Assembly: GCA_008632985.1 (NCBI GenBank)
Contig: QPGO01000087.1
Coordinates: 124,001-188,000, forward strand
Length of the DNA stretch: 64,000 bases
Direction: 5' to 3'
From: Psammoneis japonica
Taxonomy: Eukaryota
Below, piece after piece: positions 1,480-46,944 of the stretch. A program made the position numbers and the translations under genes. Under the pieces are notes generated by a model. That model was not told where the DNA came from, did no database searches, and saw only the letters and a program-made list of their open reading frames with translations. Positions within the stretch are counted from its first letter, which is position 1. The number at the start of each line of letters is the position of its first letter.

Positions 1480-3627
1480 TGGATGCAGTGATGAACATTC
1501 TCTTCTTGCGCCTTGTCGATATGTCATGAACATTCTCTTCGTGCACACAAGTTTTGAGGCGCTCTTTGGCATGCAGAAAAATCGTTGTCTTTGGCCTCTT
1601 TGCAAGAAGCGAGCTGGCACGTCCTGCGCAACGTCAACGTTCAACATTCGTTCATGCTGGCGTGGGTTCGCGCGCGCGTACCTACAGCACACCTGTCAGA
1701 GGGGGCGGCGGGGGTGGTCATCATCTTTCTGTCTCTCCAGTCTACTCTCTACGGCAGCAGAGAGTGCAGTGCCGGCACGCATGATGCAGTGCTGCCGGTG
1801 ACCCACAGAGCACAGGGGTTGTGGGTTGTGGCAGCAACACCAGTGTGCAACTGCAGAGCAGGAAGATCCAAATCCCAACCCACTGCCATGCCACAGCAAG
1901 CCAGTCAGAAGGGCAGAGAAGGAAAGGGTTGGTGTCAAAAACGGGTTAATCTCATGTGTTGCTGGCGCTGCGGCCAGCATGGCTGAGCCCCGCACAAAAC
2001 AAAAGATGCCCTTGCTGAGCCCAAAGGCCAAAAAAGACTTTGCAGCGTGAGTCTCTCCCAACTCAGAGAAGCGCCACATGCAGACGTGACTTGTTTCATG
2101 TTGCATGGCCGAGTTGCTGTGACCCCTGTCCGGAGCCAGCACCCAGAGCTGTTTTCCCACGGCAAAACCGCGCAAACATGCCTCTGCGGCGATGCCCTCT
2201 TTCGTGCTGCCGCTGTTCAACACAACAGCTGCTCCCCCAAACACCACTTGTGCTCTTGACAACAGAAGCCGAGCCTCGTGTTGGGCGAGGCATGTCCTTT
2301 GTTGTTGTGCACTTTCGCCCTGGTCTCTCATGAAGCACCGGCACCAGCCCACTTGCCTCTGCTCTTCTGCTCCCATTGCGGCTCTGCCGGTTGCGCATCA
2401 CTGGAAAATGTGTGTCTCTGTTGCCATCCACAGCAGCCCATCACCACTGGCACATCTGTCAATTCTGTCCTTGCGCCACCTGCTGCAGCAATGTGACCAT
2501 CTGCAAATCTCTGCCTCTTGAGACACTCTTCTTGTGCACCAGCCTGAGTTCAACATGGTGCGCGACAAACTCAAAAATGATTTTGTTGGAACTCAAAAAG
2601 AGATGGTTGCAACTGACATGTCGACTCCTCTTTGCAATGTCCTCATCAACCCAACAGCTGCAAGGCAGCTGCGCACATCATCAAAGATGCCTGTTGGCCA
2701 AGCTGCAAAACTGTTTGTGCAGTGTTGCACAGACTGCACAAACGCAAAGGCACTGCAGCTGTGTGCACTCTTGATGGTGCACACAATCTGCTCAAATGGC
2801 AAACTGATGCAAAGCACAAAGCCAGAAAAAACACCTTTTGAAGAGATGGCGCCATTTCTTCTTCAGCAAAACTGGCCAGAACAACACAGACTTGAGGCAC
2901 TCAACAGGTGGAAAAGTGTCATTTGTCCAAGAGGTGGCATCATGCTGCCAATCAAAAAAGTTTTTGACCAAGAAGGAATCCTGTGCATTCAAGTTGCCAT
3001 TGAAGCCAAAGCCCAGAATGTTGAGATGCAAAATTCTGGGATTGTCACCCGTGCAGAATCTGATGATGGCAACATCTGTGGGCACAACTGTGAGAAATGG
3101 GCCACAAACTTGAGCCCCCACAATGGCAACTGCTGCATTTTGGTTGTGACTCAAATCAATGCTCAGGAGAGTGCTGTGAGGGGCCAAGTGGGAGGATTGC
3201 AAGAAGCATGCCATTCCTGCCTGCTTTTTGTGGCTGTGACTGCAACATCAAGGCAGACAGCTTGCCTTTTGTGGAGACGATGGAAGGGCACATGACTGCG
3301 GTGGACAAGAGGCAGTTTCTCAGAGACATTGAAACAAATTTCAAGTGGCCGCCAGCAGCACCAGCTCACAGCATTGATGGTGGAGGGCAGCCTGCCAAAG
3401 GATTTGCAGAAGAAGCAGAACATGCCATGAAAATGTTCCTTGGTCACCCCATCCTCAGATTGACACCAAAAGAAGGATCCGACCTGAGTGAGGTGCCATT
3501 GAACTGGTGCCTCCATGTGATCACCCACCCACAATTTTTAAAAAAACAGTGGCAAAGGATGGGGAAGATGCCTTGGATTTGAAAAGTTGCCCACGGCCAT
3601 TCTTGGTGGCCTTCTTCAAAGCAATGG

Positions 3628-4023
3628 TGACAGGATTTGAACAGGATTTGGGTGCGCGCGAAATGTCGCGTGCCATTTGGTTTGCCGCGCACAGTTTTGT
3701 GTGCTCTTTGGTTCCGCGCGTGCGCGCGCCATGCAGTTTGCTTTGAGCCACACGGCTCACAAGAATGACAACCTTGAGTCCAGTCGAAGCCAACACGAAA
3801 ATCCTTCTCCTGCACAGTTCCCAGTGCAAATTCTGCAGGAAAAAAACCCGGATGTGGACACTTTTTGGACACTCCTGGACACAAGGATGACAGCAGCCCG
3901 ATTGCACCGACTTGCACGTCTTTCGGCTCCTGTGACGGTCTCTGAGCGGAGACTCATCTGCCATTTAGACAGCAGCAAGGAGTTGTTGTTTGAATTCTTG
4001 CCATTTGCCTTCAATTTCTGTCA
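3628..4023 (+). repeat. 5' LTR (396 bp)
   Basis: TGACAGGATTTGAACAGG...CTTCAATTTCTGTCA, repeated at 10425-10705. Confidence 0.95.
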
Positions 4024-4040
4024 GATTAACAGTCTTGCTC
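4024..4040 (+). promoter_or_regulatory. Putative primer-binding site complementary to a tRNA-Asn(GTT) anticodon arm
   Basis: GATTAACAGTCTTGCTC abuts the 5' LTR; its reverse complement GAGCAAGACTGTTAATC contains the Asn anticodon loop CTGTTAA. Confidence 0.6.
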
Positions 4041-4957
4041 ATTGTCAACCCATTGAGCAACCGCCATCGTCGTCGTTGATTTACCGACGACGCTTTTCAA
4101 TTCTGCGTGGACCTTCGTGTGCATTCTACGTACATCGGCAAGTCTACGCGCATTCAATGCCAGGCATCGGCAGGAATTTAACGTCACCGTCAAGTCTCCT
4201 CACCGCTGGATGTCTGGATTGATTGCGCTGCCTTTTGTCGCTGAAGACATGCATTCAACGGTTGTGTCCAAGTCTGTCCTTGATCCTCATCCCTTCATGT
4301 GCCCATTCAACGGTTAACGGTCAAGAACCCCACATGTTCAAGGATCTTCGTCGCTGTAGACACACATGTGCACACATCTTCACGGCCAAGAACTTGAACC
4401 CACTCTTTGGACTGCGGCTTTGCTGTCACTCTACAAGCACGCCGAGCCTGTTGCACCTGATCTACCCGGACTGCTGGTGCTCTGCAGTTCTGCTGGGTCC
4501 ACCAGGACGACTGTGAGAGCAAGCAGCCGTGATTGCAGCCTGCGTTGGGGCGAGGGTGTTTTCCCACGTTTGTTCGTTCGTCCACAGAGCCTGATGCCTG
4601 CATCAACTGGCCAGCCTGATCGGGAAATCCAACCGACACAAAATGAGAACAGTTTGGGGGTCTTGTCCACCTCCAGTCAGCTTGCCTGCAGGGGTTTGCA
4701 ACCCGCTGCTCCGCTCGCAAGCAACCCAAAGCGCTGCTGGCTGTGGGTTCGGACGTGCCGGCACAACTCTGCGGACCGGATGGGAAGTTTAGCACTTGAC
4801 AACGAACGGGATGACACAACCCGGCGACTTCTGATTTTAAGACAGTTCAAGATTTCAAGTCAAGTCCATTTCAAGCCAAGTCCATTCCCACTCAAGTTTC
4901 AAGTCTGCCTCCACGTCCCAACAAAAATCGCTTGTCCTGACACCGCTTTTGTCTGCC

Positions 4958-7900
4958 ATGGTTCTCACTCGTCAGCAACAAACCCATGGTTTCGAGCACG
5001 TTGTTGGAACCGTGCTTGCCCAAGGTGCTGGAAGCCCTCTTCGTTTGGCTTTGACCCATGACGGCACGGACTCGCACCAAGAACTGTTCGCGTTCACACC
5101 TTCCCAAATCGACTCGCTTGAGTGCGACAACGGCACTGATGTGATCCCATTGCCCCGAGGTCATAAGAACATGTTGGCAGCTCCAGCCAGTCTGCACATT
5201 GTCAAAGCACACAAAGGCCTTGATGTTGCCAATGACTCCTGTTGTTTGCGCATGAGGAGTTCCTTGCCTGCCGCCTCAGCCCCGACCACATGTCCTCTGT
5301 GTCCGTCGGCAGCTCACCTCTCGCACCTCCACATGTCACCAACCCGACCAAGGCACGCGACCCGGTGCGAGACTTCAAGCAAGGCATCCAGCATGACCCC
5401 ACTGCTTTCACGGCTCTCAAATCCGACAAGCAGTGGCACACTTGGCACACCTCACTTGTGGCACAAGCCCGTGCCCAAGACGTCGAGTGCATTTTAGACT
5501 CGTCGTACAAACCAACCACCCCCGAGGACAAACTGCTCTTTGCTGAACAGCAAAAGTGCATGTTCGCCATCTTCAAACACATCCTTCTCACCGACAAGGG
5601 CAAAGCCCTCATTTGCAAAAATGTGGGGTCTTCTGATGCCCAGACCGTCTGCCGTGCCTTGTCCGAGCATGCGCTCGCCTCCACCTGCGCATCTGTCGAG
5701 TCTCCACCTTGCTCATGTGCCTCACCACCGCACGCCTTGGTGATGGCACTTGGAAAGGTCCGACCCACGGGTTCATCCTTCATTGGCAGGATCAGTTGCG
5801 CAAGTGCAAGGCACTCATCCCAGCCAGTGACCACTTCTCTGAAGGACAGAAGCACGTCATGCTCGAGAATGCCGCACATCCTGTCGAGGAACTCCGTGCC
5901 GTCAAGAACCAAGCTGATCAACATCGCACGCAGAGTGGCAAGAGCCTCACATGCGATCAATGTTGTGGCTTGCTCCTCTCCGCGGTGGCTCAATGCGACA
6001 GAGCACATTTCAACCCAAGACGACACCTCGAGCTCCCCGCCGCGCCACATGCGCACACGACGTCCACTCCGAGGAACCATCCGATGATGTGTTCTATGAC
6101 ATCGACAGCGACATTGACGTCCTTCAGGCCAACGCTGCCTGCACCCGCGGTCCAGCCTCGCCGGCGACCAATGGAAACGTCTCCCTCCTGACCACCAACG
6201 GATTTGGGATTCGTTGCCCCATTCCTCCAAGGCGATCATCCTTGAGCATTCTCGTCCACCTCCCCGCAACCCACGAGCCAGCAACTGCCATGAGTCCATT
6301 GCGGTCAACCTTCACGACCAACGACTTGGGAGTGACAGTGATGTCAACTTGTCCAACACGACTCCTGCTGACTCTGGTGATCCCACTCAAATGTGGGTGC
6401 CACTTCAGACAATCCCATTCTGGCGCATCTCACCAAGCGCAAGCCACTGCCACCCGGTGATCTGCAACGCCTGTTGTCTCCTAACCAAGCCCCCAACGCC
6501 AGTTGACTGGGCCCATCCGCTGCTCCCTCTACCTCGCCTGCTCCTCCAGATGACACAGAACTTGACGGCCACACTTGCCGCGCGTCAACAACCACAATGT
6601 CATTTGCTCTGCCTCCGCTCATCGCTCCACACGCACTGGTGCTCTAGTCGATCGTGGAGCCAACGGCGGCATTGCTGGCAACGACGTTCGCGTCATTGCA
6701 TGCACCTCTCGCCAAGTCGACGTTCAGGGCATTGACGACCATCAATTGGTGGACATCCCCATTGTCGCCGCTGGTGCCATCATTGAGACACAGCGTGGTC
6801 CCGTCATCGCCATCCTCCATCAGTGCGCATGCACGGGAAAAGGCAAGACCATTCACACCTGCGGCCAGCTCGCATGGTGCAAACATGATGTCAACAATCA
6901 CTCTGTCAAGGTGCCCAATGGCTTGCAGTGCATCGCCACCCCTGATGGCCATGTCATCCCAATTGACATCAAGGGCGGCCTGCCTTGTGTTGCCATGCGA
7001 CCCCACACTGACGACGACTGGGACACCCTGCCAATGTCATCCTTGCCGGTGACGACACATGGGATCCTTCCGTCCTTGATCACTCTGTCACTGACGACGA
7101 CCGGTGGTGCGACGCGATCTCTGACCTGCAGGACGATCCCACTGCCAACCCATTTGATGAGTGCGGCAACTGCCGTCACCGTGTCGTTGTCAACAAGGCC
7201 ATCATGTCCGCCTCCTTGTCTGCCGATCACGCGTCTGCCCTCGATGACCACCTCATTCCGAATGACGACGTGTTCTACGAGTGTCACCCACACGCGATTG
7301 ACCACAAGGACGACGACGTTCCGCCCCCGGAGTGCAATGTGCAGCCCAAGGACCCCCCCTGCGAGTCTCTTTGGCCCTGCTTTGGTTTCCAACCTGCCGA
7401 TGCGGTTCGTCGCACTTTCGACTGCACCACCCAGTGTGCCCGCATGCCCGCCGGTGCACACCTTAAGAAGGCCTGCAAATTGCCCAACCCCGCCCTTGAT
7501 GTGCACCGCCGCAACGAGCCTGTCGCCACTGACACCATTTGTGCCGACACCCCGGCCGTCGACTCTGGTTGCACCAGTGCCCAACTGTTTGTTGGCACCG
7601 AGTCTGCCGTCACTGACGTCTGCGGCACCAAGACCAACAAAGAGTTTGTCAACACACTCGAGGATCAGATCCGTGAGCATGGTGCTCCCTCCAAACTCAT
7701 CAGCGACCGTGCTCAAGTTGAGATCAGCAACAAGGTGCTCGGGATTCTATGAGCCCTCTTCATCTCCAGCTGGCAAAGCGAGCCTCACCAGCAACACCAA
7801 AACTTTGCCGAACGCCGACACCAGACCGTGAAGCACATGGTGAACACCGTCATGGACCGTTTGGTTCGCCTGCCCACACATGGCTGCTGGCGCTCATGCA

Positions 7901-10380
7901 TGTTTGCTTCGTGCTCAACCACACAGCGTCCCCACGTCTCCACTGGTGCACGCCCCTCGAGACTCTTGCTGGCTCCACCCCGGACATCAGCCCATTGCTT
8001 CACTTTCACTGGTGGGAACCCGTGCACTTCCACCTTGATGACTCTGATTGGCCATCCAAATCCCGTGAGTTGCACGGACGCTTTGTTGGCATTGCTGAGC
8101 ACGTCGGCCACCAGATGACCTTTAAGATTCTCTCTGACGAGACCCAGAAGATTCTCTGCCGGTCCAATGTACGATCCGCTGCCACCGATCCCACCGTTTG
8201 AAACCTGGGTCTTGATCCTCCTGATGGGGAGCCACCTGAACCCATCATCAAATCTCACCATGATGACAACCCCGTCGATTCACCTGATGGGGAGATCAGG
8301 ACACCCAAGATGCCAGTTTTTGATCCGCAAGACATCATCGGATGCACCTTCCTCATGCAGCCACAAGAGGACGGACAACGCCACAGAGCTTGCATCGTCA
8401 AGGCCGTCAAAGATCACGAATGGAAAGTGAACGGCAACCCCGAGCTCACTGAGTTCGTCTGCTCTGTCAACAACGACGAATGCGAGGAAGTCCTGGCCTG
8501 CAACGACATCATGAATCACATTGAGCAAGAAGACGAAGACACTGCTGTTTGGAAATTCCGACATGTTGTGTCACACAAAGGACCTCTGAAGCCTCACGAC
8601 CCAACCTTGAAAGGCTCAAGCTACAACATCATGCTTCAATGGGAAAGTGGGGAGATCACGTCCGAGCCTCTTGCCATCATCGCCAAGGACGACCCTGTCA
8701 CCTGTGCCATCTGTGCACGAGAGAACGGACTTCTCGACACTGATGGCTGGAAGCGGTTCTGCACCATCGCGAGGCGCCAGAAGAAGCTGTTCCGCATGGC
8801 CAACCAAGCCAAGCTGTGCTCCTTCTGCACTGCACCTCGCCACAAGTGCGGACACGAAGTTCCCCAGAACTGCAAACATGCCATGTCCCTAGACGAACAC
8901 AACGGCAACCGCAAATGGGGAGATGCAACCAATCTTGAGATGGACCAACTCGACGAATACGAAGTCTTTCATGACTGCGGGCCCTCTGAGTCTTCCACTC
9001 CTCCTGCGGGACACAAGAAGATCCGAGTGCACCTGGTGTGCGATGTGAAACACGACGGCCGCCACAAGGCATGACTCGCAGCCGATGGACACCTCACGGA
9101 CGCACCCATGACAGTGTCCACTCTGGAGCAGTCTCTCTTTGTGGCCTTCGGCTGATGATTTTCCTGGCCGAACTCAACGAGTTGGAGACATGGGCCACCA
9201 ACATCGGCAATGCCCACCTTGAAGCCACCACCAAGGAGAAGCTGTACATTGCAGCTGGACCCAAATTTGGCAAACTCAAAGGCCACATTCTTGTCATCTA
9301 CAAGGCCCTGTGTGGACTGCGCAGCTCCAGCCTCCGCTGGCACGAGCGCTTCGCCGACTGCCTGCAAGCTGAAGGTTTCTTCCCCTGCCGCGCCGAACCT
9401 GACATTTGGATGTGCAGGAACGGCAACCACTGTGAATGTGTTGCCGTTCATGTGGATGACCTCGCCATTGCCATGAAGGATCCTCAACCTTTCGTCGACA
9501 CTCTCACGGAAAAGTGCAAGTTCAAGCTCAAGGGTGCGGGACCGATTGAGTTCCATCCAGGCTGCGACTTCTCCCGGGATCCTGACGGCACCTTGTGTCT
9601 GTCTCCGTGCAAGCACATCGAACGCATGGTCGACAGCTGCACATGACTGTTTGGGGAGAAACCTGTCACCAACGTCCTGTCCCCTCTGGAAAAGGGTGAC
9701 CACCCCGAACTGGACACCTCCGAACTGCCAGAGCCCGATGGCATTCAACAGCTCCAGTCTCTTGTTGGATCCCTCCAATGGGCAGTGTCTCTTGGTCGAA
9801 TTGACATCACCACAGCTGTCATGTCACCATCTAGCTTCCGAGCTGCACCCCATCAAGGCCACTTGGATCGTGCCAAACGCGTCTGTGGGCACCTCTCCAA
9901 GATGCGACACGGCGCTCTCTGCGTTCACACGGAAGAGCCCGACCATTCGGATCTCCCTGCACCGGCCTGTGAATGGATGCATTCCGTGCATGGCAAAGCA
10001 GAGGAGATGATCCCGAAGGATGCTCCACCGCCCCTTGGCAAGTTTGTCACTGCCACCCACTGCGTCAATGCAAACTTGTGTCATTGCATGCTCACCGGAT
10101 GCTCTGTCATGGGAATGCTCCACTTCCTCAACAAATTCGGTTGCATGTTCGGTGACAACAAGTCGGTTGTAGACAGTGCCACCATCCCGCACTCCAAGTT
10201 ACACAAGCGACACACTGCTCTCTCGTTCCATCGTGTGCGTGAGGCGATCGCCTCTGGCCACCTTGAGCTCCACTTCATCGAAGGCTCCCGCAACCCTGCT
10301 GACATTCTCAGCAAGCATTGGGGTTGCTCCCAAATCTGGAACCTTCTCCGTCCCCTCATGTTTTGGAACTTCATTCCATC
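4958..10380 (+). pseudogene. Copia gag-pol polyprotein, frameshifted and hypermutated
   Basis: gag-like DPVRDFKQGIQHD...AQARAQDV; protease ALVDRGANGGIAG (~6640); integrase VATDT...KLISDRAQVE...WQSEPHQQHQNFAERR; RT DVKHDGRHKA, KALCGL, AVHVDDL; RNase H tail MFGDNKSVV...HRVREAIA...NPADILSKHW. Confidence 0.93.
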
Positions 10381-10424
10381 CGAAGTCGAATCTGTTTCTG
10401 TGACTCCTCAAGCAAACTGGGGAG

Positions 10425-10705
10425 TGACAGGATTTGAACAGGATTCAGGTGTGCGCGAAATGTCGCACGCCGTTTAGTTTGCCATGCACAGTTTGTGTGT
10501 GCTCTTTAGTTCCGCACGTACGCGCGCGATGTGGTTTTTGCTTTCAAGCCACACGGCTCACAAGAATGACAACAGCAGCCCGATTGTGCCGACTTGCACG
10601 TCTTTCGGCTCCTGTGACGGTCTCTGAGCGGAGACTCATCTGCTGTTTAGACAGCAGCAAGGAGTTGCTGTTTGAATTCTTGCCATTTGCCTTCAATTTC
10701 TGTCA
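10425..10705 (+). repeat. 3' LTR (281 bp, lacks ~115 bp present in the 5' LTR)
   Basis: Direct repeat of 3628-4023, preceded by polypurine GGGGAG (10419-10424). Confidence 0.95.
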
Positions 10706-13700
10706 ATGGTGTGAGCACCATGGACTGTCGTCAGGTGCTGTCAATGGAAATGTGGGCAAGGGGAGGGAAACCAATTGAGCAGGAGAGGATTCCATGTCCT
10801 CTGTGCAACAACTGACAAACAACAAGGCAATTGGCTGAGCTCAATGCAGAGTTCCTCTTGGACTCCTTAACATCAACCATGTGAGAGCTTTTTTGCAGGA
10901 GCAGTGTGGCACCCTCCCACCATCACATGCTGGTGCTGTCCCACGGCCTTGTCTTGAGGAAGCAGTGTCAGCTGCTTAAAAGATGAAATGAAATGGTCCA
11001 AAGGGTTGCAGCCAGCTCCATGCTCCTTGTCAGAGTTGCACAAAGATCCCAAAACATGCTCAATTGAGCAGGTCATGCCACTTCTGGCAGGAGAGCAATG
11101 GCAATGGGGTCAAAAAAGGGCAGTGCACACAGCACGGAAGTCATGAAGATTGGCCCTTCAACCACCATGCCTCCACTTGAGGATTTGTGACATGTCATGC
11201 ACTCACACAAAAATGCAATGAACACAGCACAAAAATGTCACATCATGTGCAATCCAAGCAAAATGTGTCACATGATGCATTTGCTCATTGCAAGCAAATC
11301 TCCACTGGTGGAGATTTGCTCCAAGGGTGTGGCATCTCCAGCATGCAAAACACCCAGGTGGCAAATGTTGACATTGAACTTTCTTAATTGCAAGAATGGT
11401 CCCCCAGAGCTTTTGGCAGCGAGTGTGCACTCCAAAACAAAATCGCATGAATTCTTTGTTGTGCCCACATTTGAGAACATTTTTAACTGTTTGTGACACA
11501 AGTGAGCAAATCTCCACCCATTTGCTCAAGTCCAGTGGTTGAAGGGTCAACGACAAATCAATCAACAACAAAACACATCAGAAGTGAAATGGTGCAAGGT
11601 GCCATGCTTGTTGATGTGTTGACTGTGGCAACTGCAATGTGTCCACCTTCTCTGTGACAGAGGGAAGGCACAAGGAAACAGGCCAAAGTGTTTTGCTGTT
11701 TTGAATTCTGATGACCCCATCCCAGAAATCAGATCCCATGCAGGGTGCGTTCTGCATTTGAGAAAGAGATGGGTGGCTGCATTCCACATCTTGGCTCTTG
11801 GTGCAAGTGTCCCATTGCAGATGGTTGCTCCCATTCCCTGGCTTTTCTCAGAGGTCCAATCTGTTTGGCACAAGTGCACACAGAATGAACCACAGACACA
11901 CTTGCCAAAGCAATGCTGGAGTCCATTTAGCCACATCAGTTGCATCCCACCATCCCTTTTGAGGAAGGAGCTTTTGAGTCTGGCAAAGCAGAAAAGGAGG
12001 TGAAAGCTGAGGGAAGAGTGGCTCTGGCATTCTTTGAGACACATGGTTCCAGAGAAAGGCATCACAAACATGAAAAATTGAGATGGCAGCTCAAAATGAA
12101 GCCAACAATGGAACTCTAACAATGCAAACATGTGCTGACACAGAGGGAGTGGTTGCAAAGGGCAGAAAGAGGGCCAAACTGACAGAGACAGAGCAAGACT
12201 TTGCTCTCATTGGGTGACATTGGACAAGACAAGAGCCATGAACAAGCGGGGGCTTGAAGGCAAGGGTGGGCTGGCAAACGAGTCTCTTGACTCAAAGCAT
12301 GAGCAAGTGGAGATGCTGGAGTGCTTGCACTGAGAAGTGAAGGCAGGAAACCTGCCAAGGATGCTCCTCTCTCACTGCACTGAAGTTGCAAAGCCTTGCC
12401 ATGATTGTTTGTTGAAGCAGCTGACGCATGTGACAAACCTGTCCACAATCTGCCAAAAGGACCTTCTGCTGAAAATTGAAGAAGATAACCAAGTGTGTGG
12501 GGACAAGAATTTCAACAACACAATTTGCTTGTGTCCCAATGGCAATGAGATGATCTGCCTGAAACACCTTGTTGGGAAGCACTGCGACATTGCTGAGGCA
12601 GGTGAGGATGAAGAAGGGATCAAGTTGCTTTGATGGTCAAGCAATGCATGTGTTCAAGATGTTGCACCCAGTTTTCATTTCCCATGTCTGCATCATGCCA
12701 TCAACTGCTTGCAAGGGCTTGCAAATCTCTGTGCTCCACACCATGCCCCGGATCCAAAAAATCTGCACCTGGCTGACAGATCTCACTTTGAAAAAACTGA
12801 AGAAAAGAAGACAGCTGCTTGAAAGAGAAAGGAAACAGCTTGGGACAACAGAGCACAGAAGAAAGCTGTGGATCTGCAAAAAATTGCAGAGGGAAAAGAG
12901 TCTGGCTGACTGCCGCTGACAGTTTGTGTTGCGTGCACTTGCTTCATCTTCAACCAGCACCAGCGTGGCATGTTTGCAAACAAATTGTGGTCAGTGTCAA
13001 CCATTCCCCCCACAACTCTGTCAATCTGATCTCAGGCTGCCGTCTAAAGTGGAGACCTGTGTGCTCAAATGCCAAACCAGTTTGAGCTGACTGCATCATA
13101 AAAAGGCTGTGCCACTCGAATCGGTTTTCTTGCTGCACAGCAAGTGATCAACAGCAGTGCAGACTCAGGCGGTGTCTGCCACAAATGTTTTGCCATCAAC
13201 CATCAACAATCACTGCAATTCTTTCACACCTCTTTGAACTTTCCAGGCATGGTCACTGAGACACATGTTGCACATTGAGGTGGATCGCTGGTGCCAAAAT
13301 GAGGCATGTTGTCACACAATGCAACATCCGCTGGCATGCAATCTAGCATCAAGTCTAAATCAAGCATTGACACGCAGAGCCCAACTTGTTTAAGACAAGG
13401 CATCCACTTCTGTGCCACTCCTGGAAACCAACTGTTGCCATCACGATGCCAAATTGATCCCAATGTTGCAACCCAATGACCTTGATGATGCATCATCATC
13501 ATGCATGTGAGAGCCTCTCCCTCCTTGACAAAGTGCTCCTTTCCCTTTCCACACTTTTCCTCTGCATCAGGAAACCAAACTTTTGTGATGTGGCACATGG
13601 CTTTTTTAACCCTGCACCCCAGAGATGTTTTGCCCTTTTGCCACAGATTTCATGCCACTTGCTGCTTGTCAGGTTCTCCCAGCTCAGTCCACCCATCTCT

Positions 13701-14604
13701 GCAATCTCATCTTCCTGCACCATGCATTCTTTCAATTGTTTGGCCTTGTCTTTCAGCTGTGCTTTTGGTTCATTGGCAGCACAGGATGCACCGTGAAACA
13801 ATCATTTCACTCTCTCAAGCTCATCTCTTGACCAAACATTCTCTCCTTTCCCACTTTGTCTGGATCAAATGCACATGCCTTTGTGCTGCCACTGCTTTTT
13901 GGATGATTGGTTGCAGAAAAGGCAAGTCCCTTGCATCACCATCATCATCAAGGTGCAACTCAATGGGATCCAATGATGCACAGGCTGACTCAGCATTGCA
14001 AAAGCAATTGACCTTCATGCAGCAGGTCAGCACTGGGTGGTGTGCAGTCTTGTCATCTTTGTTCTGATCCTCAATGTTGCTCCAGTGGAAGTCAAGCAAT
14101 TCCACTGTCTCAGAATCCACATTCTCCAAAGGAACCCTGTTGTCATTCTTTAAATGAAAGGATTGAAGTGGGTTGAGCCAATGCATTTGCAGTTGCCGGG
14201 AGATTCAGGCAGTGTGCAAGAGTTCCCAAAAAGGTGATGGCAGGACACCTCCATCATGCTGTTGCTCTTCACATTGCTGCTTCCATGCAGCCTCCTCTTG
14301 CTGGCACAATGAAGGTGACAACAACTGCACCTCTTTTGATCACGAGCATCAACAAAGTCCTTCATGCTTTGTTTGCATTCCTCTTTGTCACGGCAGATGC
14401 ACGGGTGCAGTCAGACACCATTGCAATGGTTCCTCTGAGAGGATCACACTTGCGCTTGGGTGAGGGTGTGGATGATTCATCTTTCATCATCACCAGAGGC
14501 AGAGGAACACCAAAGCCAACAGACACACCAGTGACGTGTTCCAGCCGCACGTGACCCAAATCGTGCACAAAAACGACATTTGCGCGATTTTTGCGCGGTC
14601 TCTG

Positions 14605-15060
14605 ACTTACGAACGGTTTTTCACCACCAAAAGTATAGATTTATTCAAATTCTAATGTTTTGCAACACTAACAAGACTCGTGTGAGTGTTGCAAAATCAT
14701 TGTTATCGTGCCATCAATGTTTTTCATTGCGATAAACGAATCGTAACACAACGGATGATTTTCGGCGAAATTATTGCCGTTATTTGGATGTTAACTAAAT
14801 ATATCTTTCTACGATGGTTTTTAGTATATTTGCTACTTACAAAGAAATTTACGTATAAAGAGTACGGACGTACAATCATCATTGAGTCTACTGAGGAAGT
14901 TTATGATACATGTCCCATGAGGAATTTGATACCCACAAAAAACTATTTAATTCTTCATAATTATTCATACTCTAGACGCCTATAAAAGCCAATCCGTTTA
15001 AGTATTTTATATGAAAATACTGCTTACACTAATATATACATACCTTATATTCAAAATCGA
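14605..15060. other. AT-rich, TpA-rich island between two TpA-depleted blocks, with a 16-bp-arm inverted repeat
   Basis: About 22-32% GC in sampled 60-mers; about 50 TpA in ~450 bp; arms TTTTGCAACACTAACA (14658-14673) and TGTGAGTGTTGCAAAA (14681-14696). Confidence 0.75.
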
Positions 15061-15921
15061 TTGTCGTTTTGTGTGTCACCTGGGACTGGAACACGTCCAG
15101 TGGTGACAGGCTGCTGTTGATGGCAATCAAGATGTGTGTCTTTGAGAGGGGTGTGATGGCCGAGCTGCAATGGGAGCTGAAGAGAAGAAAAACAGACTGG
15201 TGCTGATGCTTCTTCAGCCCATGGAAAGCACACAATGGATGATGTGACTCATCCAATGCAAGGCTCCCAGTGTCTGTTGTTAAGAGTGCAAGTGTTGTTG
15301 GGGAGAGCAAGCATCTTGTTGAGCAGCAGCAGCAACATGAAAAGAGGAAGTCATCAGAGGCCATGGTTTTGATGTGGTGAAAACATTCTGGCTCATCACA
15401 GTGGCCAAAAAGAGTCCACACCCCCACCTGGAAGGCAACAGGCAACCACACCCATGGGTCTGTGCAGGAAAGGTTTGGCGGCATTTTTCTCCTGCAGAGT
15501 TTTGGCACACTTGCCAGCACCATGACCAGTGGCTTTGTCCCACACTGTGTCAATTCAAAAAAAGAGGCACTGTTAAGTTGGAAAGAGCCATGCATTGAAA
15601 CCAATTCTTCAGCATCAGGCATGGTGGGTGCTTGGCAACAAGAGTGTGTTCTTGACTGAGTGCAAGCAAAAAGTGAGCATCTGCAGTGATGCAAAACATC
15701 TGTCAGCTTGTTGATTGGCTCTTTCTGTTTCATGATGTCATCATGACAAATGCCTCCAAATTAACTAATTTTGTTGCTGTTTTTGTGCTTGTTGAGAAAA
15801 ATTGTCATCAAGCAATGTGCCACAGACCCAGTGATGTGGCTCTGCTTCTACAAAATTGACATCTTGATGAACCAGCATGATGCCCAACTTTTTTCACACA
15901 TTTGACACACACACACACACA

Positions 15922-15956
<35 letters not shown>

Positions 15957-17230
15957 CAAACAACAAGTGAGGTGAAGCCTGCTCATGATGGCAACCATGG
16001 GCTTGTGTGCACACCAACATTTTCAAGCCAAAACAAGATGTTCACAAACAATCTGTGCTTTTCTCCACAAGCGTTGCACCGCTTTTGCAAATGAGGAATT
16101 CCACAAGTCCCAGAAGACAGCTGCAAACTTGCAATGGTGCCCACCATGGGCCACAACATCACAGATGGCAAGTTGCTGTCCAGCTTGTTGTGACTTGGTG
16201 TGCCACAATTTTTTGGTGAAATGGTGCAGCTGACAAGCTTTTTGTCATTTTGCAAAGTGATTTGCATTGCCAACCATGGCACTGCTCCAACAGTGGTTCA
16301 CTCAAGAGATCATCAATGAGCTGCTCTAGCTGGGCATTGCACTGCAGCAGCATGGGTGGGCTCTGGCTGGCCCAGATGTTGCTCCACTTTCCGGCCATTT
16401 TTACAGCTCAGCCAGCATGGGGTGGGTGTGCCAGGAGTGTGGGTGCTGGTGTCTCCTGTTGTTGGAGTTGCCACATTGCCAGCAATTTCACAGCAGTGCC
16501 AAAACAACTTGTTTTTGCTCCAGCTGTGATGGGCTGAGCAGCACTGCATCAAGAGCAATGAAAATGTCCCAACAAAAGATGTGACCACAACTGTGCAGCT
16601 GGCAACATCACTCTTTTTTGACTGGATCTGCCATCTCTGGGCCTTTGTTGTGCTGTGTTCAATGCTGGACTGCAGTGTGGGTGGAAAGATTTCTTCTGAT
16701 GCTGCGCTGTGCCAAGTAACAGTCATCCATGTTCATGTGAACCTTTCAGCACATGCTCTGTGGCAGCCACATGTTGCAGATGTTTTTTGCTCAATGAGCT
16801 CCATCTTTGGGTGGGACCTCATGGCACCATTCTTTGGGCTCCTTGTGGGCACACACACAGCTCATGAGCTTGCAATGGACCATGATGAGAAGAACGGCAT
16901 CAGGGGGAAGGCTCAAAACCAGCACAGAGTTGCACCAAAGGAACAGCTTTTGCCACTTTCCCTGGTGTTGGATGCACTGTTTTGTGCACCCACCATCATG
17001 ACACCCATCTGCACATGCAGGAAGAAGGGCTGTGCGCTGGTGCTCTTCTCTTTAATTTTGGAGGTTGACAGGTTTTACTGCCCATTGGCACTGCATGTTA
17101 TCTTCATGATGCAAAGCGTTCATTGGTGTTGTGCCTTTGTTGTGCCATTCTTCTCGTTGCTGGCAGCAGCACTGTCAGGACACCTTTTGCCCACCCGTCT
17201 GTTCTGACAATGCCCCAAGTGCACGCCAGC
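15060..17230. other. TpA- and CpG-depleted degenerate block B (unidentified remnant)
   Basis: Very few TA or CG; Cys/His-rich spurious ORFs. Confidence 0.8.
15905..15952. repeat. Compound microsatellite (AC)n(TC)n
   Basis: An (AC) run followed directly by a (TC) run. Confidence 0.95.
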
Positions 17231-24734: not shown

Positions 24735-25043
24735 TGATTTCCATCTGCCACAGGCAAAGAATTTCTCTTTGAAAGGCAGCAGGAACTAAATGGCACATGA
24801 GAGGCATGCAACGCAACGTTCAGCGTCTCCTCTTATTTTGAACCTGGGATCGAAGATTTGATTTCCATCTGCCATGAGCAAAGAAGCAATCTTTGAAAGG
24901 CAGTTGGAAAGAAAAGGGAACAACAATCGAGTTGTTCTTTGCTCGGGGTTTCGTGGTAGCAGCACAACCCTCTACGTGACAAAAGATTCTGAAATGCTTG
25001 ATTTCCACATGCCATGGGCAAAGACACATCTTTGAAGGGCAGG
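24735..25043. repeat. Three dispersed ~45-bp direct repeats
   Basis: TGATTTCCAyyTGCCAynnGCAAAGA...TCTTTGAArGGCAG at 24735, 24859 and 24999. Confidence 0.8.
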
Positions 25044-26067
25044 CGGAAAGTCATTGGAACACTGGCAAGCACGGAGCAGTTCACCTGGCATGCCTCGGCA
25101 GCGGCAGTGCGCTGCGTGGAATCAAATCCGTAAGAAGACGAAGAAGCTGAAACAGACGCGGTGGCGGCAGTTGCAAGAGACGTTGTGGAGACGCTTCGCT
25201 TCAGAATCTGCGGCTTTTCAACAGCAGTCTTGCCTTGGGCTGGCTGCGTCTTGACGGACATGATGACGTTCTTGCAAGTCCTCGCCCAGATGTGAAGAGC
25301 AACCTTGCAAGCCTTGCCGTCAAAACGTTTCATGTGATTGCGGCGTCGCCACCTCTTCATGGCCTTGGACAGATCCTTTCGTTTCTTTGCTTTGAGAAAC
25401 TGGGAAGCTGTGACAATTCCCAGGCTTTCCAAGAACTCAGCCTGCCATGGACATGGAATGTGCCGCAGGGCGGTGAGATCGTCAATCGAAGAATCAATCA
25501 CGAGATTGACGCTGTTGTCCTCAGTGTTTGGCTGAGGAAGGCAAAAGTCAACACCTGCAACGCCGGCAGCTTCGGGGGATGACACCTTGCGTTGATGGTC
25601 CACATCACCCAGGTTTGAAATGACATTGGCACGAGATTTGCCAAAGGCGGCGGGGCAAGTGGACGTGGTTTTCTTGATTGCTGCGGGCGGTGTGAAACGA
25701 GGTTCCTTCTTTCTCATTTCATTGCTCTCTGTGGTTGAGTCAGATTTGCACCCAGTGCGAGTTGGACTGGGAGACCGTGGCCGGCCACCAACATCCATTG
25801 GAACAGTTCGAGATGACAGCTCACCGTCAAACTGAATGACTGTCAAACTGAATGACTGTCAAACTGAATGACTGCTTCTTCCTCATCAATGACGACGAGC
25901 TTCTTTTCGGAAGAATCGCTGTCGTCGACATGAGAAAGCTTGCTCTGCCTTTGGTGCTTCTTGTTGGCCAGAATGGCGGAAGTTGCAGCGACTTTGGCAG
26001 CCGCCATTGCCATGCCAACAAAAGACTGAGATCCAACAGTGGAGGCCTGAGATTTTTCGGCCGACAT
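24833..26067 (-). pseudogene. TpA-depleted gene-like sequence of unknown function, frameshifted by a 16-bp triplication
   Basis: MSAEKSQ...EEEAVIQFD joins in frame to GELSSRT...WQAEFLESLGIVTASQFLK...KRWRRR if two of the three 16-bp units are removed; almost no Tyr or TpA. Confidence 0.55.
25826..25873. repeat. Perfect 3x16-bp tandem repeat GTCAAACTGAATGACT
   Basis: Copies at 25826, 25842 and 25858. Confidence 0.95.
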
Positions 26068-30229: not shown

Positions 30230-32070
30230 TTGAAAGAGACCGTGCGTGCCGTGCGACAGCGGTGTTCATGCAGCACACACAATTGTGGGACCCACCTGCG
30301 GCGCTTTCTTCTTGCACAACAGCTTGCTGTTTGAGAGGATCACAAGTGTGCTGCAATGTCCTGCCTCTTCTGTGCTTTCTTTTTGTATTTGCAGCTGTGC
30401 CAGCCCTGTCACATCCGCCCACAGTGTTCGTCGTGTGCTCCTCACAAAAAGCAGCCCACGCTGTCCAGCAGCAGCAGCTGAAAAAGCAGCTTTCAAAAGC
30501 TCCCATCATGTCTTGACAGTGCCAAGGAGGCAAAAGAATGCACCTTGTGATTTCAGTGGTTTGAATGACAACTTTCATTTTTCTTGCACCAGAGCAAAAA
30601 GCAGAGGTGCTGTGGTCAAGCCGGTGCAGGAACTCTCTTTGCTGTCTGCTGTGTGTGATTTTGGTTTCTCTCTTCCTTTTTTGTGGGAGTGCAGTGCAGC
30701 ACTCCAGTCATGTGCAGTGAGTTGTGGGGAAAACACACTGTGTGTCTTGTTGACCACTTCATTTGTTTTGCAAAACCAGTGGCTGCCAGCCAACCAAGGA
30801 GTGCATTCAATTGAGCAACTCCACTTGCATGCAGAGCACAAAAGATCTTCCACCTGCTGCTTCCCATGGCATTTTGCTCAAATTTGTCTCTTGTTCAGCA
30901 TTGGGTTTTCATCAATTTAAAAATGGTGCTGCATGCTCACAAAGTTTCACAAGTGTGGCTGTGATCTTCATGCTTCAAGCAATGCAAAAACACAGCACAA
31001 CACAGGTGCGCTGTCACATTTTTTGCAAAAAACCTGCCAGCCCACATTTCAAATCTGCTTCAATGATTCCAGCCATTTTGACATTTTCCTGCAAAAGCTG
31101 CACACAGACTGGCATGCCAAAGCAACCCCCCACCCAAGCAAACCTCAAGAGGAAACATGGCAATCATGCCATGCCTCTCACAACTCTGAAGTTGACAGAT
31201 TGACCTGGCATTGTCACTCAAAGCTGCTGTCAATCATTGTGCAGGCTCCCCATCTTCTCTTTACAATGGGGCACTCTTTGCCATCTCTCTGCTGAATGCA
31301 TGCTCTTTGCTTTGCTTTTTTGTTGTGTTGAAGCAAGCCACTCAACTTTCGAATGTCAACCAGACCGGGGTTGTGGCTTTCTGAGTGCTTGAGACCAAGC
31401 CATCCAAGATGCTTCTTCTAACTCAGATTCCAGCCAAAGAGTCAAACACCAAAAAGAGAAACAACTGACTGCTGCCAGGAGCCCTTCCATTTTGACAACA
31501 TTGGGGACTCTTCTCATACATGCAAAAGTCTTCTTGCACCTCTCTCTGCTGCTTCTCACACCATCCACAAAGTTCACAACAAGACCAAATGTTTTAAGAA
31601 CAAGGAAAGTGAGACTCTCCCTTTGACTGCAGAAAGCCACAAGTGTTTGCACATGAAAACATCATCGATGCCCGTCACTTTGGCACAAGTGAAAAGTTCA
31701 CCACTCAGAAGAAGCTCGCTTGTCAACATGTTTCATTGAAAGATGTTCTGCTTTTGTTCTCCATGCATCAAGATGTGCAAACCACCAAGTGCAAGGAAAG
31801 GGTCCAGAGGCTCATCTGTCACTGCGCAAAGGCTGCCTCAGAACAAACAGTGGTCAGTCAACATTCGTTCTGTGGCAGAGTCCATTGCATTTTGGCATTG
31901 TTGTGTTTTCAAGAGGGGTTCTTGGAAAGGATTGCAACTTGCAATGGGGTTGAATGGAGTTTCTTCTTTGCCATTTTGCAGCTGCTCAACAGATCCACGG
32001 AAGAATTCCGCTGCCTGAGAAAAAAGTCATCTCTGATGGATGCCATGATTCACCATGGTGAGGCAACCAA
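30230..32070. other. TpA- and CpG-depleted degenerate block (unidentified remnant)
   Basis: About 6 TpA in ~1.8 kb by hand count; abrupt return to normal composition on both sides. Confidence 0.8.
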
Positions 32071-39013: not shown

Positions 39014-40444
39014 CTAAAGAGAAAACGGGCACTCAATTTCTTTGTCATCAACCAAATCCTTCAGCCCTTCTCCTGCGAAACTAGTGAGCGGAGAAATCTC
39101 GCAAGAGTCGCTTTCTAAATCACCCTCTAGCTTGCCTCCAGCATTTGTAACCCACTGTTTTGCCATGGTAGACATCATTGCCCGAGCCGTGTCTGGACTA
39201 TCCGAGGCAGACCCAGGAGCGTTTTTGACGGGAGCAAACTCCTCCTCGCGCGTCACCTCCAACACACCCATATTTGTAGACAACGGAAACACATCAAAGA
39301 TGAAGGTTTCGAGTTTGATTCCATTGTTGGATGTGGGGGTTTCTGTTTGTCCCGTGGACTCGTCGTAGTAAGGGATCTTCTTGTGCGCCACATGGTACAT
39401 GTTTTCCATGTTGGGTAGCACCACCTTTACTAAGAAATCAAGCGTATAAAAGTGGTTGCAAATGTTGGCTGCGCCAAAGACGAGTCGACCCGTCTCATCT
39501 TTTTGCTCTGCCATTTCAGTCGTAATGTCCGAGTATTCCACAATGCACGGATTGCCTTCCTTGTTACAAGCCATGACGCCTACCTTTTCGTGTGCGTGTG
39601 CCTTCCACAAGACCTTGTTTCCACAGTCGGCGCCCTGCGACAAACAGTAGCCGACAAAGACAGGATCCGCGGGCCGTACGAGGGCATTGTCAATGCTAAA
39701 GACGTGTAAGTAACGGATCCCGCGTTGCTCCATATCGTCAAGAGTACCGGATCTCTGAAGAGATCCATAAATACCACCATTTCCGTCTGGAGCCATTGCG
39801 ACCTTGGAAGCAGACTCCATGATGATTTTGCCAGCGGGAGTAAGACATGGCAGCATGCCTTGTTGAAAGCATTTTACAGAATCTTTTGGTAATCCAAAAT
39901 ATGAGTTAGACTCAAAGAATTCCACAGTTTCGTCATGGTTGAGAGGCGAAGTCATGATGTACCACGGAATATTTGCCCCAGTGCCTTCTTCAGCGGACGC
40001 CAATTGCAAAAGTCGTGTGATGCGCTCCGCAATGAGCTGAAACAACGACTTTTTACTCTGCAGTCCGATATCATACATGCCCTTTGGTCCGTTAAACCCG
40101 AGACGCGTTCCTTGGCCACCTGCCAACACGACTGCTGCAACCTCTCCGTTTCGAATAGCTTCCAGCCCGGCTTTATACGACGACGACAATACATTGTTGT
40201 TGCTGGTGCTCATGACTTTGTTTTGAAAGGGCCCAATATCGCTAGCGTTAGAAACGTTCTTCTGATCCTCAAGAGCCGCCTGCAACAAGGTGGAAAGATT
40301 CTCAACAGGAATGCCGTTCAATTCACTCAGCAACAATGACTTTTCTGCAGCAGAAAGACTCGCAACGTGATCAAAGACATGGCCTTGTCCCGCCGCCTCA
40401 AATCTTGATCGGATCTTTTCTTCGTTGACGCCATCCGCAGTCAT
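39014..40444 (-). CDS. UAP1: UDP-N-acetylglucosamine pyrophosphorylase
   Basis: LAGGQGTRLG...PKG, APDGNGG, HEKVGV, VEYSD, NICNH, KLETFIFDVF, EFAPVKNA. Confidence 0.95.
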   Translation of the reverse strand: MTADGVNEEKIRSRFEAAGQGHVFDHVASLSAAEKSLLLSELNGIPVENLSTLLQAALEDQKNVSNASDIGPFQNKVMSTSNNNVLSSSYKAGLEAIRNGEVAAVVLAGGQGTRLGFNGPKGMYDIGLQSKKSLFQLIAERITRLLQLASAEEGTGANIPWYIMTSPLNHDETVEFFESNSYFGLPKDSVKCFQQGMLPCLTPAGKIIMESASKVAMAPDGNGGIYGSLQRSGTLDDMEQRGIRYLHVFSIDNALVRPADPVFVGYCLSQGADCGNKVLWKAHAHEKVGVMACNKEGNPCIVEYSDITTEMAEQKDETGRLVFGAANICNHFYTLDFLVKVVLPNMENMYHVAHKKIPYYDESTGQTETPTSNNGIKLETFIFDVFPLSTNMGVLEVTREEEFAPVKNAPGSASDSPDTARAMMSTMAKQWVTNAGGKLEGDLESDSCEISPLTSFAGEGLKDLVDDKEIECPFSL

Positions 40445-46200: not shown

Positions 46201-46944
46201 GAGTGCAGTGCACACATCTGGTGACTTCTCTTCAGCAACACATTCAATGCAAAAACATGACATCTGACGTGCTCTTGTCCAGAATCTTGCAATCGTGACA
46301 TTGTTGCACATGTTTTGTTCAACCCAAAAACTGTTTCCAGGGAAATGACAATGGAGCACTTGTGGGGACTGGAAAGTGGCTGGAAAGGGCCAAGAGATTG
46401 ACTGAGCAGCACCACACAAAAGCTTTGTGCTCTTTGCAATGGGCAAAGAAGTGGGCAGTGCTGCCTGTGACCACATGTTGCAATGCAAGATGACATTGTG
46501 CCTTTCCTGAAACATGGAGGGCTTCATGATGTGAGCAAAGATGGAGTGTTCTGGAACAAAAAAGAAGAGTGTCTGGCAGCACCATGGGCTGTGGTGGCTC
46601 AACAGATGGATTTCAGGGCTGTGCAGGGCCTGTGGGGCTGCCGTTTCCTTTGCTTTGTGCTTTTCATCAGTGGAGAAGAGGTGGATCATTTGCTGCACAA
46701 CACCAGGGGTGCTGGGCATTTCATGAGTGCCAAACCTTTTTCCAGCGTGCGCTGGAGCAGAGTTCTGAGACACTCATTTTTCCAGGGAGAGTCACAGAAA
46801 ATGTGTGTGCAGCGGGCAAACTCATGCCCCAAAAGGAAATGTCAAGTGTTTTGCTGGCAACAACTCTGCAGCCCAGGAGTGCAGGCCCTTGTCTGTCCTC
46901 ATTTGGCTGTCAGCCAGCCATCGCCTCTTGGAAGCCACACAACA

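Follow-up and report, generated by a model that had tools for sequence, protein, structure and literature searches.

We analysed a 64,000-nucleotide stretch of the nuclear genome of the diatom Psammoneis japonica (positions 124,001 to 188,000 of contig QPGO01000087.1, assembly GCA_008632985.1; hereafter the window, with all coordinates counted from its first letter). The interval 8310–9660 in it is the pol of a dead Ty1/Copia retrotransposon, which extends from long terminal repeat (LTR) to LTR at 3628–10705. This element has lost about 90% of its TpA dinucleotides, with a CpG observed/expected ratio (O/E) still at 0.77, and we consider it very likely that it has undergone post-integration, dinucleotide-specific TpA hypermutation of the Bigelowiella natans kind. 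In the process that we envisage, TpA in the integrated element would be changed to TpG or CpA by an A:T>G:C transition on either strand of this self-complementary dinucleotide, until near saturation, so that TAY codons would turn into TGY (Cys) or CAY (His), the catalytic YVDD included. The changes are restricted to transposon-like or foreign DNA with sharp borders, sparing the adjacent host genes, and accumulated much faster than the CpG>TpG/CpA decay in the same blocks. The target is the TpA dinucleotide and not the tyrosine codon, and the loss of tyrosine that first drew attention to the interval is a by-product.

Loss of conserved tyrosines from the Copia element

The Copia-type reverse transcriptase (RT) was confirmed by a match to Pfam RVT_2 on 8990–9643 (E 7.7e-14, 52.3 bits against a cut-off of 31.6), with the domain itself at 9098–9634 on the forward strand and HVDD standing where YVDD is expected. 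The pol segment 8310–9660 (forward strand) consists of the end of the integrase-RT linker and the RT, and carries a frameshift near 9110 and in-frame TGA codons at 9072–9074 and 9644–9646. It belongs to a degenerate gag-pol at 5251–10381 (forward strand), collinear with residues 100–1848 of a 1859-residue relative and interrupted by five frameshifts (near 6282–6405, 6584, 7033, 7863 and 9110) and by four in-frame stops, all of them TGA, at 7750, 8199, 9072 and 9644. Relatives are plentiful, with 344 matches and an RT identity of 59–71% among the 120 matches listed. Pfam integrase, protease and RNase H gave no match at E ≤ 0.01 on the degraded open reading frames (ORFs) of the element, and the order gag, protease, integrase, RT, RNase H is the one its relatives would predict.

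For the analysis of replaced residues we used 37 relatives of at least 1800 amino acids among the 120 listed of 344, placed on the window by tblastn, and called a column conserved where 25 or more relatives were aligned and 80% or more of them shared one residue. Over the whole element this gave 638 conserved columns among 2323 aligned codon positions. Tyrosine was kept in only 2 of its 33 columns, the others reading Cys (17), His (11), Leu (2) and Phe (1), as against 501 kept out of 552 columns, with various replacements, for all residues other than Tyr and Arg (Fisher P = 5e-27 for Tyr loss against other residues). Arginine was intermediate, with 34 of 53 columns kept and the rest replaced by Cys (8), His (6), Trp (1), stop (2, both CGA>TGA) and two other residues. 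Within 8310–9660, which holds 234 conserved columns, the 16 tyrosine columns now read Cys (8), His (5), Tyr (2) and Leu (1), the 17 arginine columns read Arg (11), Cys (4), His (1) and stop (1), and 189 of the 201 remaining columns are unchanged. The translated element contains 0.36% Tyr, 4.4% Cys and 6.0% His, compared with 3.7%, 1.0% and 3.6% in the pooled 37 relatives.

These counts bear out most of what a first-pass annotation had read from the letters of this interval, namely a systematic conversion of conserved Copia tyrosines to His or Cys, with TA ancestral, both strands affected and the RT active site hit. The codons it quoted are in place (CAT at 9449–9451 in HVDD, TGT at 9311–9313 in KALCGL and CAC at 9215–9217 in GNAHL), and conserved Tyr has become His or Cys at 13 of 16 columns, far beyond the rate for other residues. 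The 'about 4' tyrosines said to remain are exactly four in the aligned frames, all TAC (8622, 8958, 9245 and 9299). The active-site residue at 9449 is Tyr in 37 of 37 relatives, so YVDD has indeed become HVDD, and intact relatives have Tyr at these columns generally. The SVYSG motif is moreover still TAC in other copies, as seen in a loose contig end at 9106, where the window has CAC. The annotation's motif list was right for most entries, with three sites that are not clean tyrosine columns: the Cys of HLVCDVK (9039) corresponds to Phe in 26 and Tyr in 11 of the 37 relatives, the second His of RHKCGHEV (8853) to Phe in 25 and Tyr in 7, and the His of NHCECVAV (9428) to Val or Ile. Its inference held in direction and strands but was too narrow in being centred on tyrosine and on a single element. 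The excess of His and Cys comes partly from arginine via CpG>TpG/CpA: among the 50 His/Cys codons of 8310–9660, 15 lie at majority-Tyr columns, 15 are native His or Cys, and 7 lie at majority-Arg columns because of CpG decay. The TpA process is also not peculiar to this Copia element, since 25,666 of the window's 64,000 bases are affected by it.

What is the actual target, then? The conserved columns that differ from the consensus of the relatives number 101 of 638, and they are made up of TpA>TpG (21), TpA>CpA (16), CpG>CpA (17), CpG>TpG (13), transversions (22), multi-step changes (9) and only three other transitions. The TpA class reaches well beyond tyrosine and includes Ile>Met/Val, Val>Ala (GTA>GCA), Leu>Ser/Pro, Thr>Ala and Asn>Asp. 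Counted by opportunity, nonsynonymous A:T>G:C changes occurred at 37 of 47 TpA sites and at 3 of 454 sites in other A:T contexts (odds ratio 556, P = 3e-43). TpG and CpA arose with similar frequency, both at the dinucleotide level (21 TpG, 16 CpA; P = 0.51) and at the tyrosine columns (17 Tyr>Cys, 11 Tyr>His; binomial P = 0.34), and therefore both strands were affected. The interior of the element (4501–10424) retains 22 TA in 5924 bp (O/E 0.08), with CA and TG raised to 1.39 and 1.69.

Could this be simply the composition of the Copia lineage, or the result of selection (codon usage, avoidance of TA) or of GC-biased gene conversion? Many genomes are TpA-poor, and the host DNA of the window itself has a TA O/E of about 0.55 (range about 0.4–0.8). 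The relatives, however, contain 3.1–4.1% Tyr (2.3% in one partial sequence), and their loci on metagenome contigs have a TA O/E of 0.49–1.15 with a median of 0.72 (79 loci, found with two peptide patterns, one of them containing Tyr, and drawn from the best 80 of 590 confirmed matches). Selection on the protein is excluded, since the catalytic tyrosine is lost and the gene is broken, and gene conversion would lift all A:T>G:C changes and not leave all but three of 454 non-TpA opportunities untouched. We therefore give practically no weight to explanations of this type.

Four of the metagenome relatives (L003, L005, L023 and L049) have a CpG O/E of 0.22–0.25 and an ordinary TpA O/E of 0.49–0.66, which indicates that CpG decay occurs without TpA hypermutation in other hosts.

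Timing, copies and sequence context

At the time of insertion the two LTRs of an element are identical, being copied from one template at reverse transcription, and so any difference between them records later events. The 5′ LTR (3628–4023, forward strand, 396 bp, TG...CA) and the 3′ LTR (10425–10705, forward strand, 281 bp) start with TGACAGG and end with CTGTCA, and align over 277 columns, the 5′ copy having an extra ~118 bp (about 3773–3883) that is absent from the 3′ copy. ATGG abuts both LTRs on the outside (3624–3627 and 10706–10709) as a possible 4-bp target duplication, which differs from the 5 bp usual for Ty1/Copia. Among the aligned columns there are 24 mismatches, which fall into five sites where CA faces TG (10 columns, with a gap next to one of the sites), seven sites with CG against CA/TG, three with TA against TG, and four other differences, two of these in a poorly aligned stretch. 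The CA-against-TG sites are as would be expected if one ancestral TA (or CG) had been resolved independently in each LTR. Most of the differences between the LTRs thus lie at dinucleotides derived from TA or CG, which places the change on DNA and later than integration.

A rough estimate of rate can be drawn from the same pair. Each LTR probably started with about 12–14 TA, of which one survives in the 5′ LTR (TA O/E 0.04) and four in the 3′ LTR (0.24), and the ordinary substitutions between the two would amount to ~2 in 277 columns. Small as these numbers are, they would mean that TpA sites change at least a hundred times faster than background and several times faster than CpG sites decay. 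As a control in normal host DNA we used a 0.66-kb tandem duplicate at 55736–57062, whose copies are 88% identical and hold 27 TA each. Its 73 mismatch columns represent 72 difference sites of an ordinary spectrum, with 32 transversions, 23 other transitions, 9 TA-type and 7 CG-type sites and a single CA-against-TG site. As this duplicate in host DNA is untouched by the TpA process, duplication alone is not the trigger.

The LTR comparison also bears on A-to-I editing of the RNA by an ADAR-like (adenosine deaminase acting on RNA) or ADAT-like enzyme before integration, with the edited copies then inserted. The element does have an RNA stage, and ADAR-type enzymes prefer U before the edited A, according to the accessible part of the B. 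natans preprint (10.64898/2026.01.13.699255). However, editing of the genomic strand would give only plus-strand A>G, and here T>C (16) stands beside A>G (21); the LTRs differ at five CA-against-TG and three TA-against-TG sites despite their one template; depletion is just as strong in the older repeat around the element and in blocks that bear no retroelement signature, among which is a DUF659 transposase-like gene; and the many other copies could not stem from one that has HVDD and four stops. An origin in RNA is thus extremely improbable.

Other copies in the same organism were examined in the contigs of a DNA sequencing run, 9994 pieces of which fall on 3400–11000 with a likeness of 90–99+%, 2226 of them matching the element at 99% or more. 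Their summed depth of ~5e4, against about 60–70 for single-copy sequence, means that the Copia family is highly repeated. The contigs at the edges (3400–3651 and 10679–11000) are single-copy, with a depth of ~57, one letter different in each and 72 in the last depth bin. The window differs from the copies at 462 places, and among the 40 best-supported of these, 21 have CA/TG in the window against CG in other copies, six rows (three sites) have CA against TG, three have CA/TG against TA, two have CG against CA, and eight are of other kinds. These comparisons also speak to the suspicion that modified bases in silenced DNA were miscalled in a long-read assembly. Methylated motifs are a known cause of systematic long-read base-calling errors, and methylation would be expected in just the blocks that are affected. 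Against such an artefact, the k-mer contigs reproduce the TpA-poor edges (from a run that may be the assembly's own data), the copies differ from each other at the same dinucleotides, and the frameshifts, stops and 22 transversions represent real decay, so that a technical origin is hardly credible.

The TA dinucleotides that survive are not a random sample. TTAA makes up 24 of the 89 left in the TpA-poor blocks of the window against 65 of 1459 in the background (P = 1e-11), whereas the contexts with A before or T after TA (ATAA, ATAC, ATAG and ATAT) account for 11 of 89 against 703 of 1459 (P = 4e-12), with ATAT itself at 0 against 121. A model with one parameter per base fits the ten palindrome-collapsed contexts reasonably and ranks the base after the edited A as T >> C > G > A or, which amounts to the same, the base two positions ahead of it as A >> G > C > T. 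The leader between the 5′ LTR and gag (4024–4500, forward strand) has kept 10 TA (O/E 0.37), which, read by eye, all lie in TTAA, TTAC/GTAA, CTAC/GTAG or GTAC contexts. There is a hint, as yet unconfirmed, that TpA events are clustered by strand: the 37 inferred events form 13 runs where 19.2 are expected (P = 0.026), but a runs test on all CA/TG dinucleotides of each block gave no signal (z from -1.85 to 1.75, controls being similar).

TpA-poor blocks across the window

Twelve TpA-poor blocks together occupy 25,666 bp, or 40% of the window, and contain 89 TA, with 1459 in the remaining 38,334 bp. Their TA O/E is 0.02–0.37 (at most 0.08 in ten of them), CA/TG are raised to 1.3–2.05, and their edges are sharp within one 250-bp bin. 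The neighbouring host genes are normal in dinucleotide profile. One host gene, for UDP-GlcNAc pyrophosphorylase (39017–40444, reverse strand), agrees with a diatom host: its best match, without a species name, is at 73% identity, and the best named matches, at 58–63%, are in Cylindrotheca, Bacillariaceae, Nitzschia, Attheya, Pseudo-nitzschia, Amphora and Seminavis.

Two classes of block can be distinguished. Those of the first have lost TA but retain most of their CG: these are the Copia element (CG O/E 0.77), a 1-kb block at about 24990–26010 with a single TA (TA O/E 0.02) and a near-normal CG O/E of 0.80, and the block 47001–50250 (TA 0.07, CG 0.51). In the second both are lost, with CG O/E at 0.07–0.32. 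Here belong the older repeat into which the Copia element is inserted, with its 5′ part at 1760–3627 (TA 0.02, CG 0.32) and its 3′ part at 10706–14544 (0.05 and 0.14, measured over 10706–14500), and the blocks 15077–17050 (0.07 and 0.07, measured over 15250–17050), 30250–32050 (0.05 and 0.21), 43750–47000 (0.02 and 0.18) and 50500–52300 (0.04 and 0.14). The existence of the two classes, together with the position of the Copia element inside a block of the second class, indicates that TpA loss is fast and CpG decay slower, both of them yielding CpA/TpG. Since the TpA process destroys TAA and TAG and creates no stops, long ORFs of 100–400 amino acids, with TGA as their only bounding stop, run through the blocks in all six frames and would be mistaken for genes in annotation.

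The block at 47001–50250 contains a frameshifted remnant of a DUF659-family transposase-like gene (47457–50147, forward strand), with four relatives at 31–39% identity, one of them from the diatom Discostella. It shows the same TpA signature in a gene without reverse transcriptase: over 305 columns where at least two relatives agree, Tyr is kept at 1 of 9 (3 His, 2 Cys, 3 Phe) and Ile at 4 of 16 (4 Met, 3 Val, 1 Thr), and Thr has become Ala at 4 of 9. The DUF659 Pfam scores are under the family cut-off, and a resemblance to hAT elements is our assumption from the likeness of motifs. Searches of PDB sequences gave no match with a DUF659 relative and a single, not meaningful one at E 0.62 with a profile of four sequences, and the search for terminal inverted repeats of this element gave no decisive result. 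Among 61 ORFs of at least 110 amino acids in the other TpA-poor blocks, Pfam returned only three sub-threshold matches (XPG_I, ESM4 and Megourin), and comparison of the window with itself revealed no further repeat families for a comparison of copies.

Three of the remaining features deserve description. In the older repeat, at 2522–3292 (forward strand), there is a remnant of an XPG/FEN1-like nuclease ORF, with XPG_I at E 1e-3, under the cut-off; the two best of its three relatives (E 7e-13 and 7e-8) carry XPG_N and XPG_I. Small flap nucleases are common in large DNA viruses, and the older repeat could thus be virus-derived, like the Bigelowiella targets. The block at 24990–26010 has a 341-residue ORF on the reverse strand (24836–25858) with no recognised family in Pfam or in the protein Atlas, where neither this ORF nor the one at 2522–3292 found a usable match. 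The block is preceded by a ~55-nt motif that occurs three times at 124-nt spacing, and has a 16-nt unit three times inside (repeats at 24735–25040 and 25826–25870). It could be one gene that was hypermutated or else a short insert of foreign DNA. Finally, a TA-rich segment of 0.53 kb with normal CG (14545–15076; 30 TA in 14751–15000) lies unmutated inside the TA/CG-free domain, framed by a 12-nt inverted repeat (GACGTGTTCCAG at 14533–14544 and its complement at 15077–15088). It is either a later insertion, perhaps resembling a miniature inverted-repeat transposable element, or a sequence exempt from hypermutation.

Known systems, chemistry and significance

The closest precedent is the TpA-only hypermutation of nucleocytoplasmic large DNA virus (NCLDV) and virophage insertions in B. 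natans (Mettrop et al., bioRxiv 10.64898/2026.01.13.699255). As the accessible part of that preprint reports, 231 of 302 new mutations in its mutation-accumulation lines fell in two viral insertions; 230 were A>G or T>C, all of these at TpA, at ~6e-7 per site per generation, about 1000-fold over background. The genome has 124 TpA-poor clusters, with RT and DDE Pfam domains enriched among TpA-poor genes, and the authors attribute the changes to a proposed ADAT2-like enzyme that deaminates adenosine in DNA to inosine, which is then read as G (10.64898/2026.01.13.699255). The two systems share the confinement of A:T>G:C to TpA, both products, local depletion of TpA with enrichment of CpA+TpG in clusters of foreign or mobile DNA, and a rate orders of magnitude over background, although our LTR-based figure of at least 100-fold is a rough one. 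They differ in host, B. natans being a rhizarian and P. japonica a stramenopile, and in targets, which are viral insertions there and an LTR retrotransposon and a DUF659 transposase-like gene here. Depletion is also near saturation here (O/E 0.02–0.1), in contrast to the NCLDV region of B. natans (Rho 0.45), and is accompanied by co-located CpG decay and by a flanking-base preference; the words 'CpG', 'diatom', 'trinucleotide' and 'retrotransposon' do not occur in the accessible text of the preprint (10.64898/2026.01.13.699255).

Fungal repeat-induced point mutation (RIP), as in Neurospora, is similar in that it makes dinucleotide transitions at the DNA level on mobile DNA, on both strands, with sharp borders, to saturation and with the killing of genes. 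However, RIP turns CpA/TpG into TpA by C>T and enriches TpA, and it depends on duplication of the DNA and on a premeiotic stage. Here TpA is lost instead, and the tandem duplicate in host DNA has been spared. With TpA nearly absent and CpA/TpG raised, the polarity is opposite, and RIP was ruled out. The same blocks also show the CpG decay known from methylated, silenced transposons, which likewise ends in TpG/CpA, as at the 17 of 53 conserved Arg columns of the element that now read Cys, His, Trp or stop, but it acts on C and not on A:T and is slower here than the loss of TpA. ADAR hyperediting and the G>A editing by APOBEC3 also produce context-dependent clusters of transitions that inactivate retroelements. 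These enzymes act before integration on RNA or on the cDNA minus strand and leave strand asymmetry; we rejected editing of this type because the changes here show no such asymmetry and the LTRs differ at the edited dinucleotides.

What chemistry would produce such a pattern? Spontaneous deamination of adenine is far too slow and has no context specificity, and we infer that the TpA process is enzymatic and serves as genome defence. TadA/ADAT enzymes edit A following U, and adenine in DNA might be deaminated by a TadA/ADAT2-like deaminase directed to silenced chromatin. This is the chemistry that we prefer, tentatively and somewhat short of calling it probable. Alternatively, the T of TpA in silenced DNA could be modified (in the manner of 5-hydroxymethyluracil or base J) or wrongly excised, and then read as C. 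Such a thymine route predicts every count made here equally well, as TpA is its own complement, and thymine glycosylases can cause context-specific T>C, although at TpG/CpA and not at TpA as far as the accessible part of PMC4041421 goes. The sole study of a TpA signature proposes adenine deamination in its accessible text (10.64898/2026.01.13.699255), and the window offers nothing specific for thymine. We know of no thymine-modifying pathway in diatoms and regard this route as unlikely, although it is the main alternative.

Several points weigh against TpA hypermutation by adenine deamination as we describe it, or limit its reach. Chemistry on adenine and chemistry on thymine leave the same pattern, TpA being self-complementary. 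The flanking preference (T after, A two before) does not obviously match the tRNA substrates of ADAT2/TadA, in whose anticodon loops U33-A34 is followed by G, A or C, and this mismatch also counts in favour of the thymine route. The rate is an indirect estimate from the comparison of one LTR pair. The set of relatives is biased against hypermutated copies, given the retrieval pattern with Tyr and the use of the best 80 of 590 matches. The contigs of the DNA run stem from one sample of one study and are possibly the assembly's own data. The unmutated 0.53-kb segment and the leader with its 10 TA mean that targeting is not simply regional.

In a full-text literature search, to which most subscription journals and preprint supplements were out of reach, we found no report of TpA hypermutation in diatoms, and a term search of the accessible text of a Phaeodactylum mutation-accumulation paper (PMC6604790) did not find 'TpA', 'hypermut' or 'transposable'. 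The window thus adds a new major lineage and new target classes to a system first described in a 2026 preprint, the core phenomenon being no longer unprecedented.

Mutational genome defence is textbook knowledge for fungi only, in the form of RIP, and the other known case is that of animal deaminases acting on viral and retroelement nucleic acids. There is a substantial chance, if not quite an even one, that diatoms, and perhaps with Bigelowiella much of the stramenopile-alveolate-rhizarian (SAR) group, have a dedicated RIP-like defence of opposite polarity, in which an enzyme directed to silenced mobile DNA edits the A:T pairs of double-stranded TpA to G:C, prefers ATA/TAT and erases TpA almost totally within less than 1% neutral divergence. 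For annotation the rule is a practical one: TpA-free blocks with long, stop-poor ORFs in six frames are dead mobile DNA and not genes, and the loss of TpA accounts for the odd His/Cys-rich, Tyr-free 'proteins' of such assemblies. Diatoms are major and genetically tractable phytoplankton, the signature is saturated here and lies on ordinary transposons, and an LTR pair identical at insertion is a dated natural experiment. The phenomenon spans lineages, and two distant genomes are available in the search for a shared enzyme. If the proposed defence exists, it would, unlike RIP, remove stop codons rather than create them, and its enzyme could be found by comparing this diatom with B. natans. That enzyme would naturally edit adenine in DNA, or act on thymine to the same effect, and would belong to an uncharacterised kind. 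As a base editor that occurs in nature it would be of direct interest if adenine in double-stranded DNA proves to be what it deaminates.

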